Positions 10,139 through 61,869 of a stretch of DNA of 64,000 bases are shown here, in pieces. The position numbers were made by a program, and so were the translations under genes. Within the stretch, counting starts at the first letter, position 1, and the number at the start of each line of letters is the position of its first letter. Below the pieces are notes generated by a model. The model was given only the letters and a program-made list of their open reading frames with translations. It did no database searches and was not told the DNA's origin. This DNA is from an uncultured virus (IMG/VR IMGVR_UViG_3300031773_001380). Lineage: Duplodnaviria; Heunggongvirae; Uroviricota; Caudoviricetes. The stretch lies in IMG/VR virus record IMGVR_UViG_3300031773_001380. One strand, 5' to 3'.

Positions 10139-10732
10139 TTAGAAGTTATAAGCTAAGCCTATAACTGATTCCTCTGAACCTAAATGTGCTAACAAATTAA
10201 CCTTACCAAAATCTTTCGATATGTTTAGGGCTTGATAGTCAGCTCCATTAATTGTTTCACCGTGCTCTAGAGCCAAATTCCAACCTTCTTTAGACATAAC
10301 ATCTACTGCTACACTAACGAATTCGTTATCTGAATTATCTAAATCACGATAGTATGTTACACTCATAATTCCTAATGTGCCACCAACATATACTTCTTCA
10401 ACAGAAGTGTTGTCGTCGCCATCGAAATTGTATTGAATTAAACCTACATCTATAGACACGAGATCAGTTAAACTTGTGCTATAGCCTCCGTAGAAATCAT
10501 ATTCTACATTTGCGTCATCGTTATAATCTACTTGTGATGCCCATGCACCAGCATAAAAGCCGTTATTAGAATATTCTAATCCTGCTGATAGTGCTGGGTT
10601 ACCATTGTTCTGTGATGCTCCTCTCCAAACATAGTCAGAACCTAAACCAATAGCTCCCGAAAAGTTTGTTGATGAGAATGCACTGAATGGTGCTAGACAT
10701 AACAACATAACAAAAAGTGATTTTTTTAACAT
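10139..10732 (-). CDS. TorF/Gcw_chp-family putative outer-membrane porin
   Basis: Signal peptide; SDYVWRGASQ..NPALSAG; GFYAGAWAS; EYDFYGGY; C-terminal YNF. Confidence 0.8.
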   Translation of the reverse strand: MLKKSLFVMLLCLAPFSAFSSTNFSGAIGLGSDYVWRGASQNNGNPALSAGLEYSNNGFYAGAWASQVDYNDDANVEYDFYGGYSTSLTDLVSIDVGLIQYNFDGDDNTSVEEVYVGGTLGIMSVTYYRDLDNSDNEFVSVAVDVMSKEGWNLALEHGETINGADYQALNISKDFGKVNLLAHLGSEESVIGLAYNF

Positions 10733-26644: not shown

Positions 26645-28225
26645 TTAATCTATGTGTGTTTTAAAATTATCATGTGATGCATGTGCATGAGACTGCATCT
26701 TAAGTTTATCAGCCGGTTTACCTGTAAGATATTTATTTAAAAACTTAGTAGCATGTGTTCGACTAACTTTATGAGTTTTACCGTCTTGGAATTTAACTCC
26801 ATCATGTTTATCTCCTAAACTTACAGCTTTTCTTAATTGAGAAACTATATGATCAGGACCTTTGTTCTCTGAACCGTCATGTTTTGACTTTCCAGGCTTA
26901 GGATCTTTCTTTCTAGGTGCCATTCCTTTTGTTGCTCCTGGAGATTTCATATCTCTAATAGCATCTTCTCTGGCGCCTTCTTTCATTGCCCTTCTTGTAT
27001 CAAATATGTTAAGGTTTTCTTTTACTTTCCTATCGGAAACAAGTTTTTTCTTTAGAGCCTTATCTGGGCCACCTGCTTTCTTAACTTTATCTGATAACCA
27101 TTTGTGAGGATCTTTTGGAGGACTGTCAAAGTTATATCCGTGGTCCATTGCAAAAGATTTAAGTGATCCTTCGTCTAGAGGGTGTTCTAATTCTTCATTA
27201 GCCCTTCTAAGTGCGTCATTAACTTCTGGATGATCGGAAAGTCCTTTCTTAATCTTCTCAGCTTGTTTAGCAGCTCCTGTCATGTTACCGCCTTTATAGC
27301 GTTTGTCAAAAGCAATACCCTTAGCCATCTTAATTTGTTTTTTACTGTAAGATGCTTCATCGACTTGTTTAAAGATTTCTTCTTTGTCGCCTGTATTAAC
27401 GTCTCTGATGTTATCAACACCTACATTAGCTAATGCACTTTCTAAATTTTGTTTGTAAAGATTGTTGAAGTTTTTAAGTTCTTCTGGAAGTAAAGATTCT
27501 GTAGATTCAGACTTTAACTTCTCTTTTCTAAGTGAACTAGGCATTGCTTTTAAAACGTCTTCTTTTGAACGTCTACCTAATTTCTTAAAACGTCTAGCAT
27601 CTCTTCCGCGCCTGCCTTCTGCATCTAAGTCTGCAAGTAAACCTTCTCTAATGTCTGGTTTACTCATTTGCTTAGGTCCATCAGTAACTTCAGGATTAAC
27701 TTCACTTCCACCTTGTGCAGGTTTCTTTTTAGCATCTCCTTCTTCTTGACCTTCATCTGCAGGTCTAGCTGCTGGTGCATGATTAGATTCTTTTACATCC
27801 TCTTGTTCTGGATTCTCAGATCCATTTTCAGATTCTTTGGACTTATCTTTGCCATTCTTTTTGGCTTTCTTGCCTTTTTTGGCTGTGTCTTCATCCTCGG
27901 AACCATCATAGACTTTTATGTCTTCTTCTTCTTTTGCCACGGTTCTCTCCTCGGTTTGATATTTTGTCTTTTGAGTATGTAGTCTAGCTCTGTTATATGT
28001 AATATCGTCGCCAAATTGGAAACCCATCATTTTATCTAAAAGTTTAGATAATGCTTCTCTCTCATAAGGTGTTAAAACTTTGCCCATCTTAACACTAGAT
28101 AATGCTCTATGCAATATAGGTAACTGCCTAGCGGGTAAAAGACCCTGTCTTATAAGTGTATCTAACCTTTGTTGCTGTGTTTGCACCTCAGTTAGACTGT
28201 CTAAAGCTTCTTGTATAGTTTCCAT
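26645..28225 (-). CDS. charged low-complexity late protein, putative internal head polyprotein
   Basis: K/E-rich modules separated by (L/I/V/M)xE sites; follows a late promoter. Confidence 0.55.
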   Translation of the reverse strand: METIQEALDSLTEVQTQQQRLDTLIRQGLLPARQLPILHRALSSVKMGKVLTPYEREALSKLLDKMMGFQFGDDITYNRARLHTQKTKYQTEERTVAKEEEDIKVYDGSEDEDTAKKGKKAKKNGKDKSKESENGSENPEQEDVKESNHAPAARPADEGQEEGDAKKKPAQGGSEVNPEVTDGPKQMSKPDIREGLLADLDAEGRRGRDARRFKKLGRRSKEDVLKAMPSSLRKEKLKSESTESLLPEELKNFNNLYKQNLESALANVGVDNIRDVNTGDKEEIFKQVDEASYSKKQIKMAKGIAFDKRYKGGNMTGAAKQAEKIKKGLSDHPEVNDALRRANEELEHPLDEGSLKSFAMDHGYNFDSPPKDPHKWLSDKVKKAGGPDKALKKKLVSDRKVKENLNIFDTRRAMKEGAREDAIRDMKSPGATKGMAPRKKDPKPGKSKHDGSENKGPDHIVSQLRKAVSLGDKHDGVKFQDGKTHKVSRTHATKFLNKYLTGKPADKLKMQSHAHASHDNFKTHID

Positions 28226-28253: not shown

Positions 28254-28261
28254 TATTTATA
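28254..28261 (-). promoter_or_regulatory. T4-type late promoter TATAAATA
   Basis: Exact box. Confidence 0.7.
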
Positions 28262-28299: not shown

Positions 28300-29598
28300 T
28301 TAACCTACTGAATAAGTAAATGCCTTGTAAGACTTAGATGCCTTTTTAAGTGTAGGACCACCAGATCTAGATTTAGATTTGTATTTAGGTTTCTTAGGTT
28401 GTTGATACTTACCTGGTTTTTTAATTTTATATCGTTTAGCTTTCTGTGAAGCTGCACCCCTAATAGGTTTAGCTGCTTTATACTTTTTAGATGTTTGTGG
28501 TTTTTGTCCACCCCTACTTTTCATTCTGTTTATTTCGTTTCTTCTCATCTGAGGAAGTAACTTAACAGCAACACGATTAACAAGTGGTTGGAATCTCTTA
28601 ATCATAGTTTCCAGTCTTGCCTTCTCTGCTGGTGGTAGTCCAGCTCTATCCCTACCTCTAAGTAGTCGTTTATAAACCATGAGCCTTGCACCCCTGGTTG
28701 CTCTTCTTTTTAATCTGTCTGGAGTAGAACCACGTCTTAGAGCTATACGTCTTGCTACTTTTAATTTTTGTCTGTTTCTTCTAGCAGCAAATCGTCTTTT
28801 CATTCTACCTTGGACTGATAATACTTCATGTATATCTACTTCATTATCAAATCCTGGTGTATTATCGAAATCTTCCCACTCTAATTCATCTTCATCATAC
28901 AATCCATCTTTTACTGCTTTATCAAATGTATAATTTTCTGCTTCTTTATCTAACTCTGTTATGTCATTATGTTCTATATACCATTCACCATCTTTACCTG
29001 TTAACCAATGATCTTTATCACCTTTGTCATGTGATTCTTTTTCATTGTCTTTAGGATATCGGTGTTTACTATGGTCTGCTTGATTAGGTTCAATTGATGA
29101 TAAATCTAAATCTTCTTTAATACCTGCATCCTTTTTCCAATCTAATACAGGTTTCTTTTTAAGGCCTAGCTTGCCTCTAATCTTATTTCCTACTCGTCTT
29201 TTAGCTTCTGAATACTCTGGTTCAAATTGTTTGAGTAAAGCTCCTTCTGTTACTTTAACTGCTTTTTCGTCCTCAGGTTTCCTTGCTTTAATGTCTAAAG
29301 GTTTAATAGGATCTTCTTTAGGATTACTTTGTCCAGGTGTTAAGGATTTAAGATAGTCTGTACCTTGTGGTGTTCCCCATTCATGTCCACCTATTGAAGA
29401 ATCATATCTGGCATCTTCTTTTAATTTGCCATCCCATACTCTTTTACCTAATTGGCTACCTGCACGAGCTAAACCTTTAGTTCTTTTCTTAACATTTTCT
29501 TTAGACGAATCTTTCTTTAGGGATATTTGTGCACCTTGAGTATAATTTGCTATGGTGTCAGTTTTAAGTTCTGTAAGATCGTTATCTATCTTTTTTTT
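28300..29598 (-). CDS. C-terminal part of frameshifted head-associated protein (-1 frame of 29586..30842); very basic C-terminus
   Basis: Frame stays open 232 codons above the TTG at 28902 with no ATG/GTG/TTG; protein-like translation (HEWGTPQGTDYLKSLTPGQ). Confidence 0.7.
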   Translation of the reverse strand, partial: KKKIDNDLTELKTDTIANYTQGAQISLKKDSSKENVKKRTKGLARAGSQLGKRVWDGKLKEDARYDSSIGGHEWGTPQGTDYLKSLTPGQSNPKEDPIKPLDIKARKPEDEKAVKVTEGALLKQFEPEYSEAKRRVGNKIRGKLGLKKKPVLDWKKDAGIKEDLDLSSIEPNQADHSKHRYPKDNEKESHDKGDKDHWLTGKDGEWYIEHNDITELDKEAENYTFDKAVKDGLYDEDELEWEDFDNTPGFDNEVDIHEVLSVQGRMKRRFAARRNRQKLKVARRIALRRGSTPDRLKRRATRGARLMVYKRLLRGRDRAGLPPAEKARLETMIKRFQPLVNRVAVKLLPQMRRNEINRMKSRGGQKPQTSKKYKAAKPIRGAASQKAKRYKIKKPGKYQQPKKPKYKSKSRSGGPTLKKASKSYKAFTYSVG

Positions 29599-30842
29599 TG
29601 TGATTTCCCAGGCAAGCCTTGAGGTGCAGTAGTTTTACCCATGACATCAACCATCTTACCGGATTTCTTATCTCTTTTTTGACCTACTCTTACAGTAGTT
29701 TCTTTTGATTTTGTTCTATTAAAAGAATTGGATTCAGGATCTCTATCAAAATATCTTGACTTTAAAGACTCTACAATTCTTTGTTGTTCTTCATCCATCG
29801 TATTCTTTCTAACTACTTCTTTTCCGCCAGGTCCAATGTCTGTTACTTTAACTCCAATTTTTTTCTTTGGATTAAGTTTTATCTTAAGTGTTTTAAGTTT
29901 GTCTTCACCTTTAAAATGTACTACAGGCTTCTTTCCTTCTTCTAAATCTGGAAATGCCTCTTTTGCTACAACACCATAAGTAGTTTTCTTTTTTCTTATT
30001 TGTTTAGCTGTGCTTGAGTTTCTGAAATTTTTAAGTCCACGCTTAATTTGGGTTTTAATACCTTGTGTTTCGTGTCCTAACTCGTGTTCCATTTCTTGTC
30101 TTTTAAAGTCTTCTTTGTAGCCTTCCTTTTGCAGTTTTTTAGCTGCTTTCTTAATTGTTTTTAAGCGATCATGTTTGCTTAAAGCATCAGCTACTTTATC
30201 ACCATCTCTATCAGGTGCTATGTGTGGACTTTTATGAAGGGTTCCTTTTTTACTAACAGTCTCACTTCCCTTTCTAAAGCCTGATACTAATTCATTTATG
30301 TTTTCTTCTTTTCTATATAAAGCTTTCGCTTTCCCATCTTTGTCTGGAAAACGATAAGCAGAAGGTTCTTTTTTCTTTTTTAGAAATTCATCTCTTTCAG
30401 ATTTTGAAAAAGGTCTAGGCCATTTTGTATCTTCAAGGAATCTTTTAGATTCTTTAGCTCTCTCTGCAGGTGTAAGTTTCATAAAGCCACTTTTAAGAGC
30501 TTTTTCGTTTTCTTGTGCTCTTCTTTTAAGTAAGCTACTTGATACTGGTTTTTTTATTGGCCTACCTGATGCTAAGTCTTCTTTAACTGCCTTTTGCTTT
30601 TTCTTAACAAATTTACGCAGTTCATTTCCTGCCTCAGCTGCTTTTTGGAAGTCTTTTTTTAGATCTTCTTTTTGTAAATGTGGATTTTTTACTGGATCGT
30701 TTCTATGGTATCTCGCTGGTGAACCACAGGATCTACATTGATCGCTACGATTCTTCTCAGCACCACAGTCGCCACAATTCCAGCCTGTCTTAGCTGCTCG
30801 GCCACCGTCATACATCTTTCTGGCTTCTGAGAATGTCTTCAT
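29586..30842 (-). CDS. Lys-rich late protein, putative internal head polyprotein (N-terminal part)
   Basis: Starts MKTFSEA; CGDC...CRSC; ends at CAA AAA AAA AGA TAG. Confidence 0.65.
   Translation of the reverse strand: MKTFSEARKMYDGGRAAKTGWNCGDCGAEKNRSDQCRSCGSPARYHRNDPVKNPHLQKEDLKKDFQKAAEAGNELRKFVKKKQKAVKEDLASGRPIKKPVSSSLLKRRAQENEKALKSGFMKLTPAERAKESKRFLEDTKWPRPFSKSERDEFLKKKKEPSAYRFPDKDGKAKALYRKEENINELVSGFRKGSETVSKKGTLHKSPHIAPDRDGDKVADALSKHDRLKTIKKAAKKLQKEGYKEDFKRQEMEHELGHETQGIKTQIKRGLKNFRNSSTAKQIRKKKTTYGVVAKEAFPDLEEGKKPVVHFKGEDKLKTLKIKLNPKKKIGVKVTDIGPGGKEVVRKNTMDEEQQRIVESLKSRYFDRDPESNSFNRTKSKETTVRVGQKRDKKSGKMVDVMGKTTAPQGLPGKSQKKR
29591..29599 (-). other. A9 slippery run, candidate -1 frameshift or transcriptional slippage site
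   Basis: A-AAA-AAA just before the stop, joining two long open frames. Confidence 0.55.
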
Positions 30843-30847
30843 ACTCT

Positions 30848-30855
30848 TATTTATA
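30848..30855 (-). promoter_or_regulatory. T4-type late promoter TATAAATA
   Basis: Exact box 5 nt before ATG. Confidence 0.7.
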
Positions 30856-58837: not shown

Positions 58838-60286
58838 TCAAAGACTTAGGAGTCTAGACTTATAAAAATCGAATTTTTCTTGCTCTCTTCTGATGATTTC
58901 TGTGTCCAAAACGTCATTTGGATACCCTAATGAGGTTTTCTTGAATTGTTCTGCACTAAACCCTAAGTTCTGGAACCTATTAAAGAAGGTCCAAGCACCG
59001 CGTTTTAAGGGTTCTCCTTTAGCAAAGTCTAACTGTAATTCAGTTGCCAATGCTGTAGCTTCTTCCCTTGTAAACCCATCATTTCGTTTCCATCCACCCT
59101 GTCCATCTAATTCATATCCATATTGTCCTGGATTCTGAGACATTAGACTGCCATCATGTGGGTGTATGTATAGTGGGTGATATGAAACTACGTCTACGGG
59201 GCAGTCTGGCTGCATTAACCACTCGTTATTAGCTCGTAATGTATCAGGTGTATCATGTGGTAATCCAACAATTAAACCTGTAAGAATAATCATCTCAGGA
59301 CATTCCTCTCGTAATCTTATAAGACCTTCTTTAAGTTTCTCACCTGGCATACCTTTACCAATTGATTTACCTGATGCTGTATTAAAGGATTCAACACCAA
59401 AAAATACACTTCTAAGACCACTTTCATATAATTGTTTTGCTGTCTCCCAATGAGATACTATTAAATCTAATCTAGCAAAACTACTGAACTCAATATTGAA
59501 ATCCATTTTCATAAATTCCTCATGGAACCTTGATACTTTTTCTGGACTATCATTATATGTATCATCACAGAACATAAATCCTGTACTACCAAATCTATTC
59601 CTGGCATCTTCTATTTCTTTTTTAACTAATTCAGGAACCCTGTTGAACTCCCATATCTTTTTACCATTAAGATCATAACTACAATAGCTACATTTGAATA
59701 TGCAACCTCTAGCAATTTCTATAGGTAAGTGTTCATTAGGAAATATTAAATCATCATCGTCCCATAATATAGAACATGTTGAAAATCTTTCATACCCTAA
59801 GTTTAATGTTCTTTTAGAAGGTCTTTTCTCTTCTATTTCTTTTGTGATTTGTAGAACACTTTCCTCACCTTGGCCTTTTATTATAATATCAAATGATTTA
59901 TCATCAGGTCTTATATGGTTTGCTTTGTGTCCTCCTGCTACAATTTTACAATCAGGATTGATTGATCTTATTTCATCTACTAATTCTTGCCAATCATCTC
60001 TTCCTGTAACAGTCATCTGTGCAGTAAAAATATTCGTTCTATTTTTACCTGTTTGGAGCATTCTATCATACTCCAGAAAAGTTGTACTAAGACCAACCCA
60101 TAAAGTATTCTTACCAACAAATTTTTTAATTATGCCTATAAGTTCTTCTGTTGACCACTTAGTAAAGTATTCTATAACCTGTACTTTATATCCATTAGCC
60201 CTGAGCTCAGATGCTATACGATATGTCCCAGCATATCTTCCAAAACCGGGACTACATATATCTGTGAATAGTATTATATCAGGCAT
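58838..60286 (-). CDS. B12-binding-domain radical SAM protein
   Basis: EIARGCIFKCSYC, DDTYN, FFGVESF and IVGLPHD; paralog of 249..1868. Confidence 0.85.
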   Translation of the reverse strand: MPDIILFTDICSPGFGRYAGTYRIASELRANGYKVQVIEYFTKWSTEELIGIIKKFVGKNTLWVGLSTTFLEYDRMLQTGKNRTNIFTAQMTVTGRDDWQELVDEIRSINPDCKIVAGGHKANHIRPDDKSFDIIIKGQGEESVLQITKEIEEKRPSKRTLNLGYERFSTCSILWDDDDLIFPNEHLPIEIARGCIFKCSYCSYDLNGKKIWEFNRVPELVKKEIEDARNRFGSTGFMFCDDTYNDSPEKVSRFHEEFMKMDFNIEFSSFARLDLIVSHWETAKQLYESGLRSVFFGVESFNTASGKSIGKGMPGEKLKEGLIRLREECPEMIILTGLIVGLPHDTPDTLRANNEWLMQPDCPVDVVSYHPLYIHPHDGSLMSQNPGQYGYELDGQGGWKRNDGFTREEATALATELQLDFAKGEPLKRGAWTFFNRFQNLGFSAEQFKKTSLGYPNDVLDTEIIRREQEKFDFYKSRLLSL

Positions 60287-60294
60287 CTCATCAG

Positions 60295-60302
60295 TATTTA
60301 TA
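60295..60302 (-). promoter_or_regulatory. T4-type late promoter TATAAATA
   Basis: Exact box 8 nt before ATG; contains the receptor stop codon. Confidence 0.7.
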
Positions 60303-61869
60303 TACTGATGTCGAGACTAAGAGTTACTTCTCTACCACCTGCGCTGTAGCCAGGTAGTATCTCGAAATTCCTGTTAAAAATGTCTCTAATTTGGAAGCCT
60401 ATACGATATCTAGGTGTTAGATAGTATCCAGCATTAAAATTAAAACTTGATACATTATCAATAGGACTGCCATCAAAGTCATTACCCTTATCAAACTGGC
60501 CTACATACGATATTAGATAGTCCCAACCAGGCAATGGTGAGCCTCCATACCAAGATATTTTAGTTTTATATTTGGCATTTCGTATTCTGTCTGAATCTGT
60601 ATATTTAACCATGATATGTAATGCACCGTCAGACATAAGCAAATGTTTCTGATACTTTATACCTTTGGATTCATATCCTCCTGAATTGATATACATATTA
60701 TCCTGGAAATTATAATCAATACTTTCATCAAATCGATAGAACCATGTAGTAAAATCTGCCCATGATAATTGTAAACCTTCTCCTCTCTCAGGTTGTAAGT
60801 TAGGATTTCCTTTAACCCAATCATCACCATATCTCTCATATAAATTTGGTGCTCTAAAACTATTTGATATAGCCCACTTAACACGAACAAGATCAAAGCC
60901 AGCTCTTATTGTTACCCTATCCTCTTCATACCTAGCTCCAAAAGCAAATTGTTTCTGTGTATAATTTAAATAGGTTGCTAACCTCTGATCCCACGCACCA
61001 TTATATTCTTCTCTGTGTTGTTGTGCGCCTAGTAATAGGCCAGGTTTTACTTCTTTATTAGCATCAATAAAATATCTTTCACTAATTGCATTCCAACCTG
61101 AATTGTGTTTAACATTATTACGACTATATCCTAGTGTAAGCCAATCACCTCTGATTGATGTGTCATACTTTCGTCCTTTCTGTGTGCATTTATGTTTATC
61201 GCTTTGTTTAACTATCGTTACATAATCATTACAACCATCATAATCATATTTGTAATCTTGCATTACTGAAATTACTTTCCATTGTTTCCATTCAGTTTTA
61301 GTTTTTAATGTAGTGTTCTCAAACCAATCCTCTTCATCGTTATCTGTTTTAACAGAACCATTAGAACCTTTATATCTAGAAACTTGAAACCAATCTGTTC
61401 CACCTATTATATAATTAAGTTTCTCTCCACCCTTATAGAAAAATTCTTTTTCAAAATTGTCCTCTATAAGTATAGTCCCTGCCATTGAAGAACTACCATA
61501 TAAAGAACTATTAGGTCCATGAATTGTTCTATATGATTGGAATGAAGGTAGATCAGTTCCAAAATCATACCACCCAGAGCCAGGATCATTAACAGGTATT
61601 CCGTTCCTATAGACTGCTGTATGTTTTACATCAGTTCCATTTGGACCATGTCCTGCAAATCCACCATTGCCACCTGGTTGATATATTTTAGTTGAATCTA
61701 ATCCTTCCATGACTGAATTGTCATATTCAGGTTGTGAATATCCTATGGATTCCTTTGCTCCAACTACTATTACTTCTTCTATGTCTGATGCTAGAACTTT
61801 TACAGAACACATCAGCACGAAAAGTATGACCGCAAAGTGCAGAACATACTTGTACATTATTTCTTTCAT
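60298..61869 (-). CDS. TonB-dependent outer-membrane receptor (BtuB-like)
   Basis: Signal peptide; TonB box EEVIVVG; plug GPNSSLYGSSSMAGTI; SFRAPNLYERY; GNPNLQPE; C-terminal GYSAGGRE. Confidence 0.8.
   Translation of the reverse strand: MKEIMYKYVLHFAVILFVLMCSVKVLASDIEEVIVVGAKESIGYSQPEYDNSVMEGLDSTKIYQPGGNGGFAGHGPNGTDVKHTAVYRNGIPVNDPGSGWYDFGTDLPSFQSYRTIHGPNSSLYGSSSMAGTILIEDNFEKEFFYKGGEKLNYIIGGTDWFQVSRYKGSNGSVKTDNDEEDWFENTTLKTKTEWKQWKVISVMQDYKYDYDGCNDYVTIVKQSDKHKCTQKGRKYDTSIRGDWLTLGYSRNNVKHNSGWNAISERYFIDANKEVKPGLLLGAQQHREEYNGAWDQRLATYLNYTQKQFAFGARYEEDRVTIRAGFDLVRVKWAISNSFRAPNLYERYGDDWVKGNPNLQPERGEGLQLSWADFTTWFYRFDESIDYNFQDNMYINSGGYESKGIKYQKHLLMSDGALHIMVKYTDSDRIRNAKYKTKISWYGGSPLPGWDYLISYVGQFDKGNDFDGSPIDNVSSFNFNAGYYLTPRYRIGFQIRDIFNRNFEILPGYSAGGREVTLSLDISI

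Follow-up and report, generated by a model that had tools for sequence, protein, structure and literature searches.

Organization of the locus

The window, by which we mean the whole 64,000-nucleotide stretch of DNA that was analysed, comes from an uncultured virus whose gene matches (nrdA, a family B polymerase, Rz-like spanins, a cytidyltransferase, DUF7207 and DUF7201) identify it as a marine T4-like phage, and the DNA datasets containing its sequence are all marine or viral metagenomes. The phage also encodes a TorF-family porin (above the cut-off) and a TonB-dependent receptor-like protein (below it), at 10139-10732 and 60298-61869, and this TorF-type porin and receptor fragment hint at a proteobacterial host. 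The gene considered here adjoins the spanin pair on its downstream side and is organized as follows.

30848-30855, minus strand: TATAAATA box, 5 nt ahead of the ORF1 ATG; none occurs within ORF1 or the -1 ORF
29586-30842, minus strand: ORF1 (418 aa, 47.6 kDa, pI 10), starting at ATG 30842; predicted default short product, small basic modules in a chain
29591-29599, minus strand: candidate slip site, C-A9-G, with the C at 29600 and A_AAA_AAA in the ORF1 frame at 29598-29592
29586-29588, minus strand: TAG stop of the short form, 2 nt past the run; the third frame is closed within at most 5 codons
28300-29598, minus strand: -1 frame, C-terminal half of the predicted 847-aa long form (96.7 kDa), with no canonical start for 229 codons past the run
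29416-29589, minus strand: first module past the junction, with weak homologues inside ORF1 of relatives (tblastn E about 0.001-0.005 against L095, the L024 group and L099)
28450-29400, minus strand: conserved family core (EWGTPxGTDY module, acidic stretch, helical basic domain; alignment A1; 232 longer homologues)
28500-28830, minus strand: Arg/Lys-rich helical domain, phrog_23027 (no assigned function), pLDDT 66-92
28254-28261, minus strand: next TATAAATA box, preceding a 526-aa gene at 26645-28225

We take the TATAAATA motif to be a T4-type late promoter, and the box at 30855-30848 agrees with the label "late" that a preliminary description had given to these ORFs. The neighbouring 526-aa gene (26645-28225) has its own TATAAATA box and a modular, charged look, contains no A-run, and returned no Pfam or PHROG match. 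At a related locus (L004:5122-6735), a 520-codon gene resembling window ORFs 249-1868 and 58838-60286 separates the recoded gene from the modular gene that comes next.

On the minus strand ORF1 ends TCA CAA AAA AAA AGA TAG, and the -1 frame, bounded by a TAA at 29637-29635 just upstream, is open from 29634 to a stop at 28300 (444 codons). Its first ATG, GTG or TTG is the TTG at 28902, 229 codons past the run and 232 from 29598, and its first ATG lies 262 codons past the run. Adding one A to the run gives a computed translation of 847 aa, the length of the fusion proposed in the preliminary description, whose coordinates and counts for the ORF1 end, the A9, the open -1 frame and its start-less stretch were likewise reproduced from the sequence.

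The length of the run was compared among four sequencing runs, as contigs, with two further runs excluded because they were flagged as a possible source of the window; contigs hide rare variants, so this comparison gives the consensus only. At this level A9, not A10, was found at 29591-29599 in 4/4 runs: contigs from three (X3, X4 and X7) span the A9 with at least 31 letters per side, 0 differences and 0 gaps, and the fourth (X12) agrees at the A9, with no indel listed, but has only 17 letters on one flank. In the database cluster of ORF1 all four members stop at the same place (418-419 aa, ending [QE]KKR), and a near-identical fused protein is absent among 13 longer homologues. One record (G001, the same as L001) is 100% identical to the window and was not treated as independent; L002-L004 are mutually identical and count once.

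Conservation of the run across related phages

Scans with alignment A1 yielded 47 viral and 80 metagenome loci. One locus (L122) was dropped before counting, having no core motif and a bacterial-looking flank, as were 6 of the remaining 126 without the full core, and the 120 loci left formed 59 clusters at 95%, 43 of which make up a close set with core identity of at least 0.72 to the window. A run of A9-A11 lies within the gene in 41 of these 43 close lineages; one lacks it and one is uninformative. L032 has no run, and a stop followed by its own ATG. An extra A is needed to reach the C-terminal half in 32 close lineages, 31 with frame-breaking runs only and one with an in-frame run as well; the 31 include L100, which has a one-base offset upstream, and L028, L031 and L097, in which translation after a slip would stop 52-65 codons on and the core is provided with an overlapping ATG of its own. 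Nine close lineages (among them the L087 cluster, scored in frame, which has a split member, L086) possess only in-frame A9-A11 runs, such that the long form is the default and a slip would truncate it. Among 16 distant clusters, 14 have no run and 2 are uninformative. The slippery run and stop that the preliminary description had proposed to look for in homologous contigs are thus conserved, and the homologues are far from uniformly uninterrupted, 32/43 being broken by the run.

After de-replication the frame-breaking sites number 34, comprising 32 A9 and 2 A10, with none of 7 or 8. All of them need one extra A (-1) and none is +1, the third frame being closed within 4-8 codons. Each of the three codon phases is represented among the runs, as are both polarities; in the case of in-frame runs, either slip leads to a stop within 3-20 codons. 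Eight of the nine in-frame lineages belong to one starred clade, together with L019, and several relatives carry two runs. At the protein level, the ending [QE]KK[RN] plus 0-4 residues is shared by 89 of the best 120 of 168 ORF1 homologues and by 79 of the top 82. Pattern scans of viral contigs for the A10 form gave 0 matches, a result that carries no information in view of the A9 control scans, which gave 1 family match in 15 (the window's own twin) and 0; a scan with the C-terminal half of ORF1 added only unrelated module carriers.

Long A runs are otherwise avoided in these genomes. The A9 is the sole A/T run of at least 8 in the 64-kb window; codon resampling of 70 minus-strand ORFs (54.8 kb) predicts 16.7 +/- 3.1 runs of A8 or longer (minimum 9 in 300 trials), against 1 observed, and A7 is also depleted (11 vs 28). 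Six related whole contigs (510 kb) contain 8 such runs, all inside the recoded gene, and a 170-kb relative that is 99% complete (G002) has one A9, at this junction, and no A8; two distant genomes have no such runs. Across the related loci, 48 runs of at least 9 were counted in 157 kb of the gene, compared with a single one in 295 kb elsewhere.

Exchange of modules and coding selection

The modules upstream and downstream of the run differ between phages, while the run stays. Its first and ninth A are invariant, and at the synonymous position two bases upstream each of the four letters occurs. For the codons between the run and the first ATG we counted 357 synonymous vs 68 non-synonymous pairwise changes (15 sequences, 11 codons), and in a second module group 176 vs 113 (12 sequences, 23 codons), the sequences being related and the events therefore not independent. 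By these counts the start-less -1 frame is under purifying selection. As judged from sequence, the gene carries three marks of programmed slippage: a run of at least nine A/T at the junction, a conserved relation between run and frame with coding selection on the new frame, and avoidance of such runs elsewhere in the genome.

A -1-type recoding that joins two late ORFs, as the preliminary description had proposed, is borne out by a run that is conserved and unique in the window and by purifying selection on the start-less frame, and recoding of one kind or another very probably gives rise to both 418-aa and 847-aa products. The mechanism is of a known type, in a gene family without an earlier description. 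Judging by known cases, it is plausible that the long form is the minor product in the window phage; in nine related lineages it is the default. In L081 the product with one added A ends IKNRSTY, and the default ORF1 ending in L028 and L032 is IKNKSTY; these near-equal endings suggest that polarity can flip with both products kept.

Probable mechanism of recoding

We consider slippage of the host RNA polymerase at the A9, giving 418-aa and 847-aa products, to be the best reading of these data, with a probability of roughly 0.55. The host RNA polymerase would begin late transcription at the TATAAATA box and, on reaching the nine-A run, would slip some of the time. Messages with 9 A (also 8 or 11) would encode the 418-419-aa protein, and those with 10 A the 847-aa protein, with its extra modules and conserved acidic-plus-basic C-terminal domain, so that the run would set the ratio of C-terminal to N-terminal modules. 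The modular protein may then be targeted into the prohead via its N-terminus and cut after glutamates by a T4-type prohead protease. That slipping takes place, and does so in RNA, is inferred here, as are the resulting ratio, the packaging into the head and the cleavage. The host enzyme would be the slipping one because the multisubunit RNA polymerase family PF00562 has no match in the nearly complete relative G002.

The evidence leans towards slippage over -1 ribosomal frameshifting because the run is never shorter than 9, whereas a ribosomal heptamer needs only 7; because its first and ninth A are invariant, three codon phases are used and A8+ is avoided genome-wide; and because no stimulator was found at the window site and ORF1 tolerates A_AAA_AAG heptamers. 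Nine A/T is the length for efficient slippage of bacterial RNA polymerase in the accessible parts of PMC5009743 and PMC1088944. At the window site no hairpin was found (z -0.06, -1.0 and +0.4) and no Shine-Dalgarno-like element was supported; a GGGA lying 6 nt upstream of the A9 has a pairing energy of -6.3 kcal/mol and is not conserved (median -3.7). An in-frame A_AAA_AAG occurs twice in ORF1 without a frame break, and this heptamer is among the best ribosomal shifters in E. coli in excerpts of PMC4066793. Counting against slippage are the in-frame heptamer at every site, a stable downstream fold (z below -2) in 17/34 relatives and a one-A difference in DNA at the run between L086 and L087. 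Since the lineages are related, the invariance may also be partly inherited, or may reflect selection on lysines.

The strongest competitor, which we regard as possible but unlikely, is a -1 ribosomal frameshift in which two tRNA-Lys slip together on A_AAA_AAA, aided by the following AGA/AGG and stop; it may also act alongside slippage. The heptamer is in the zero frame (29598-29592) with the downstream ORF in -1, all 34 frame-breaking sites are -1 and none +1, and because A_AAA_AAA is in frame at every site, an added A in mRNA and a -1 ribosomal shift would yield the same protein. Sites with z below -2 make up half of the 34, and the EVAPP-module group has a hairpin about 20 nt downstream, farther from the run than the usual 5-9 nt spacing of a frameshift stimulator. 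The hairpin itself (z -3 to -5) was observed in L075, L080, L085, L107, L108 and others, about 20 nt past the run. Partial texts describe -1 shifts for phage virion genes (PMC5009743) and a proven A_AAA_AAA with stem-loop in an IS (PMC4066793). Against a ribosomal origin stand the absence of 7- or 8-long runs, which it leaves unexplained, the lack of any stimulator found in the window, and the tolerance of in-frame A7 and A_AAA_AAG heptamers at 8 other window places.

Replication slippage in DNA could instead change the run length, so that each genome makes one form; we think such phase variation improbable. It would account for a pair of loci, 99.9% identical over 3.3 kb, that differ at the run (L086:1267, A10, split; L087:1543, A11, continuous), a difference that may be a real polymorphism or an assembly slip, and it fits the A11 of L091 and the nine lineages that are continuous by default. 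However, the state of the gene tracks the tree, with 8/9 continuous lineages in one starred clade, and the window allele is A9 in 4/4 runs, although contigs drop rare variants and a low rate is possible. The stop shared by 4/4 cluster members, with no near-identical fusion among the 13 longer matches, and the purifying selection on the start-less frame in OFF lineages also speak against it.

Even less probable are two separate genes, the downstream part starting at a non-canonical codon or by re-initiation. An ATG does lie 13-37 codons past the run in many relatives, L032 has a stop and its own ATG with no run, the core of L028, L031 and L097 has an overlapping ATG, and the basic domain stands alone in phage HTVC008M; in the window, however, 229 codons pass before a canonical start, the run is followed by differing codons (ATA, ATT, GTA, TTA, AAA), the codons before the ATG are conserved as protein, and the genome-unique run would be left unexplained. 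A homopolymer assembly error or a broken gene, the main alternative in the preliminary description, can be set aside, for although homopolymers are error-prone and the one-base offset near the run of L100 is perhaps such an error, the identical break recurs in independent sequencing runs and in 32 lineages.

More broadly, and only tentatively, slippage by host RNA polymerase may serve as a portable stoichiometry joint in marine T4-like head-cargo polyproteins, in which an A9-A11 run stays fixed while modules are swapped around it and the ratio is retuned by a flip of the default or by a second run. If true, a tailed phage would be making conserved, functional use of transcriptional slippage, and we found no tested case of this in the literature. 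The orthologues, whose default is the short form in some and the long form in others, and which include double-run and split genes, would then amount to a natural experiment on the value of the short/long ratio.

Protein features and a possible role in the head

Both forms are basic (pI 10), and their composition is most extreme at the end of the long form, where the last 167 residues, following an acidic stretch, have a pI of 12 and 34% K+R, consistent with the very Arg/Lys-rich C-terminus noted earlier. From its composition, this end is a putative DNA-binding region. The basic domain matches phrog_23027 and AGE60476.1, a 123-aa stand-alone gene of Pelagibacter phage HTVC008M (30% identity over 116 aa). 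In relatives the same core is joined either with P-loop kinase domains or with a module matching Pfam Gp23. In three of them (P0004, P0047 and P0057) this VQPMxGPTG module matches Pfam Gp23 (major capsid protein); the window protein is without it. Pfam has no family for ORF1 or the -1 ORF, and a PDB sequence search gave nothing credible (best E 0.03). An AlphaFold model built from 5 sequences was poor overall (pLDDT 58, pTM 0.29), and its weak Foldseek matches (TM about 0.24) to uncharacterised or cytidyltransferase-fused phage proteins serve as leads only; matches in the ESM Atlas were to unnamed viral clusters. Cytidyltransferases are listed in cyanophage virion proteomes, with a co-purification caveat, in the accessible part of PMC10665884.

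The N-terminus of ORF1 (MKTF..E) is like a capsid-targeting tag, in which residues 4 and 7 are key. An aromatic residue 4 with a glutamate by residue 10 is found in 78/89 homologues and F/Y4 with F/Y7 in 54/89; the window protein has F4 and lacks F7. The relative G002 has a T4-type prohead protease. Overall, no enrichment of the motif [ILVM]-x-E is seen (0.15-0.21 of glutamates vs 0.27), and it occurs at 4/12 homology-defined module starts vs a 12-14% background. The likeness of the N-terminus to the tag, the prohead protease of G002 and the fusions in relatives together make head cargo the most likely role, and head packaging of the protein is plausible on these sequence features.

Comparison with known systems

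The layout of the window gene is shared with Shigella flexneri spa13/mxiE and Citrobacter rodentium tssM1, where a homopolymer before a premature stop leads, through an added mRNA nucleotide, to a longer product and where the short form is likewise the default; in the accessible parts of PMC5009743, PMC1088944 and PMC4256274 the longer product of spa13 amounts to 25-30%, and for tssM1 both forms, and the ratio between them, are important. In contrast to these bacterial secretion-system genes, where slippage was established by experiment, the window has an unrelated phage late gene known from sequence, with modules exchanged around the run. Thermus thermophilus dnaX (tau/gamma) has nine sense-strand A with close stops in both other frames, according to the accessible text of PMC1088944 and PMC5009743. 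The nine continuous relatives have exactly this long-by-default layout whereas the window is short by default, so that the family displays both polarities.

Among phages, T7/T3 10A/10B, Lactobacillus phage A2, Listeria A118/A500/PSA and lambda gpG/gpGT likewise make a short and a C-terminally extended product from one late gene (PMC5009743, in part). Those cases, however, involve shifts of the ribosome, lie in genes for capsid, tail or chaperone proteins and frequently append Ig-like domains, while the window phage is T4-like, its protein is modular and basic with an extension of 429 aa, and the A9 is invariant; the G-T tail frameshift is given as absent from T4 in the accessible part of the same review. 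Like the T4 internal proteins IPI-IPIII and the core proteins processed by gp21, as described in excerpts of PMC9026906, our protein would come from a late gene, and it has a tag-like N-terminus and modules often starting after glutamate. Unlike the T4 IPs, which those excerpts do not present as recoded, the window protein is much longer and modular, and its motif enrichment is weak; searches of Pfam, PHROG and PDB linked it to no T4 protein.

A description of this slip site was not found in the literature, where supplementary tables of GeneTack or PRFect could list related phage sites; in the part of PMC2853527 that was accessible, phage slippage appears as an untested suggestion for a Campylobacter phage methyltransferase. 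If the slip takes place at the RNA level, programmed transcriptional slippage, familiar from bacteria and some RNA viruses, extends to T4-like phages. In dozens of abundant ocean phages the gene is split by gene callers, which shorten its second half to an internal ATG or TTG, so that real products would be missing from databases.

Similar sites in other genes

Comparable arrangements were observed in other genes. At L142:2822-3750, minus strand, a 249-codon gene without a PHROG match ends TCN-C-A9-G-R-TAG and is followed by a start-less 61-codon -1 frame resembling the window's post-junction module; by this resemblance it is probably a second family with the same device. In L146 and L155 (2753-3453) a 150-codon ORF (phrog_709, no assigned function) ends SQKKR-stop and is followed by an 84-codon -1 frame, sizes that presumably recall the gpG/gpGT tail chaperone pair. 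The same pattern is seen at L143:2030-3765, minus strand, where a 254-codon ORF (phrog_28018) precedes a 325-codon -1 frame. Finally, in L188 and L189 (at 6067 and 4326), which belong to another phage group sharing the EMEHELGHE module, an A9 lies near the end of a 208-codon frame.
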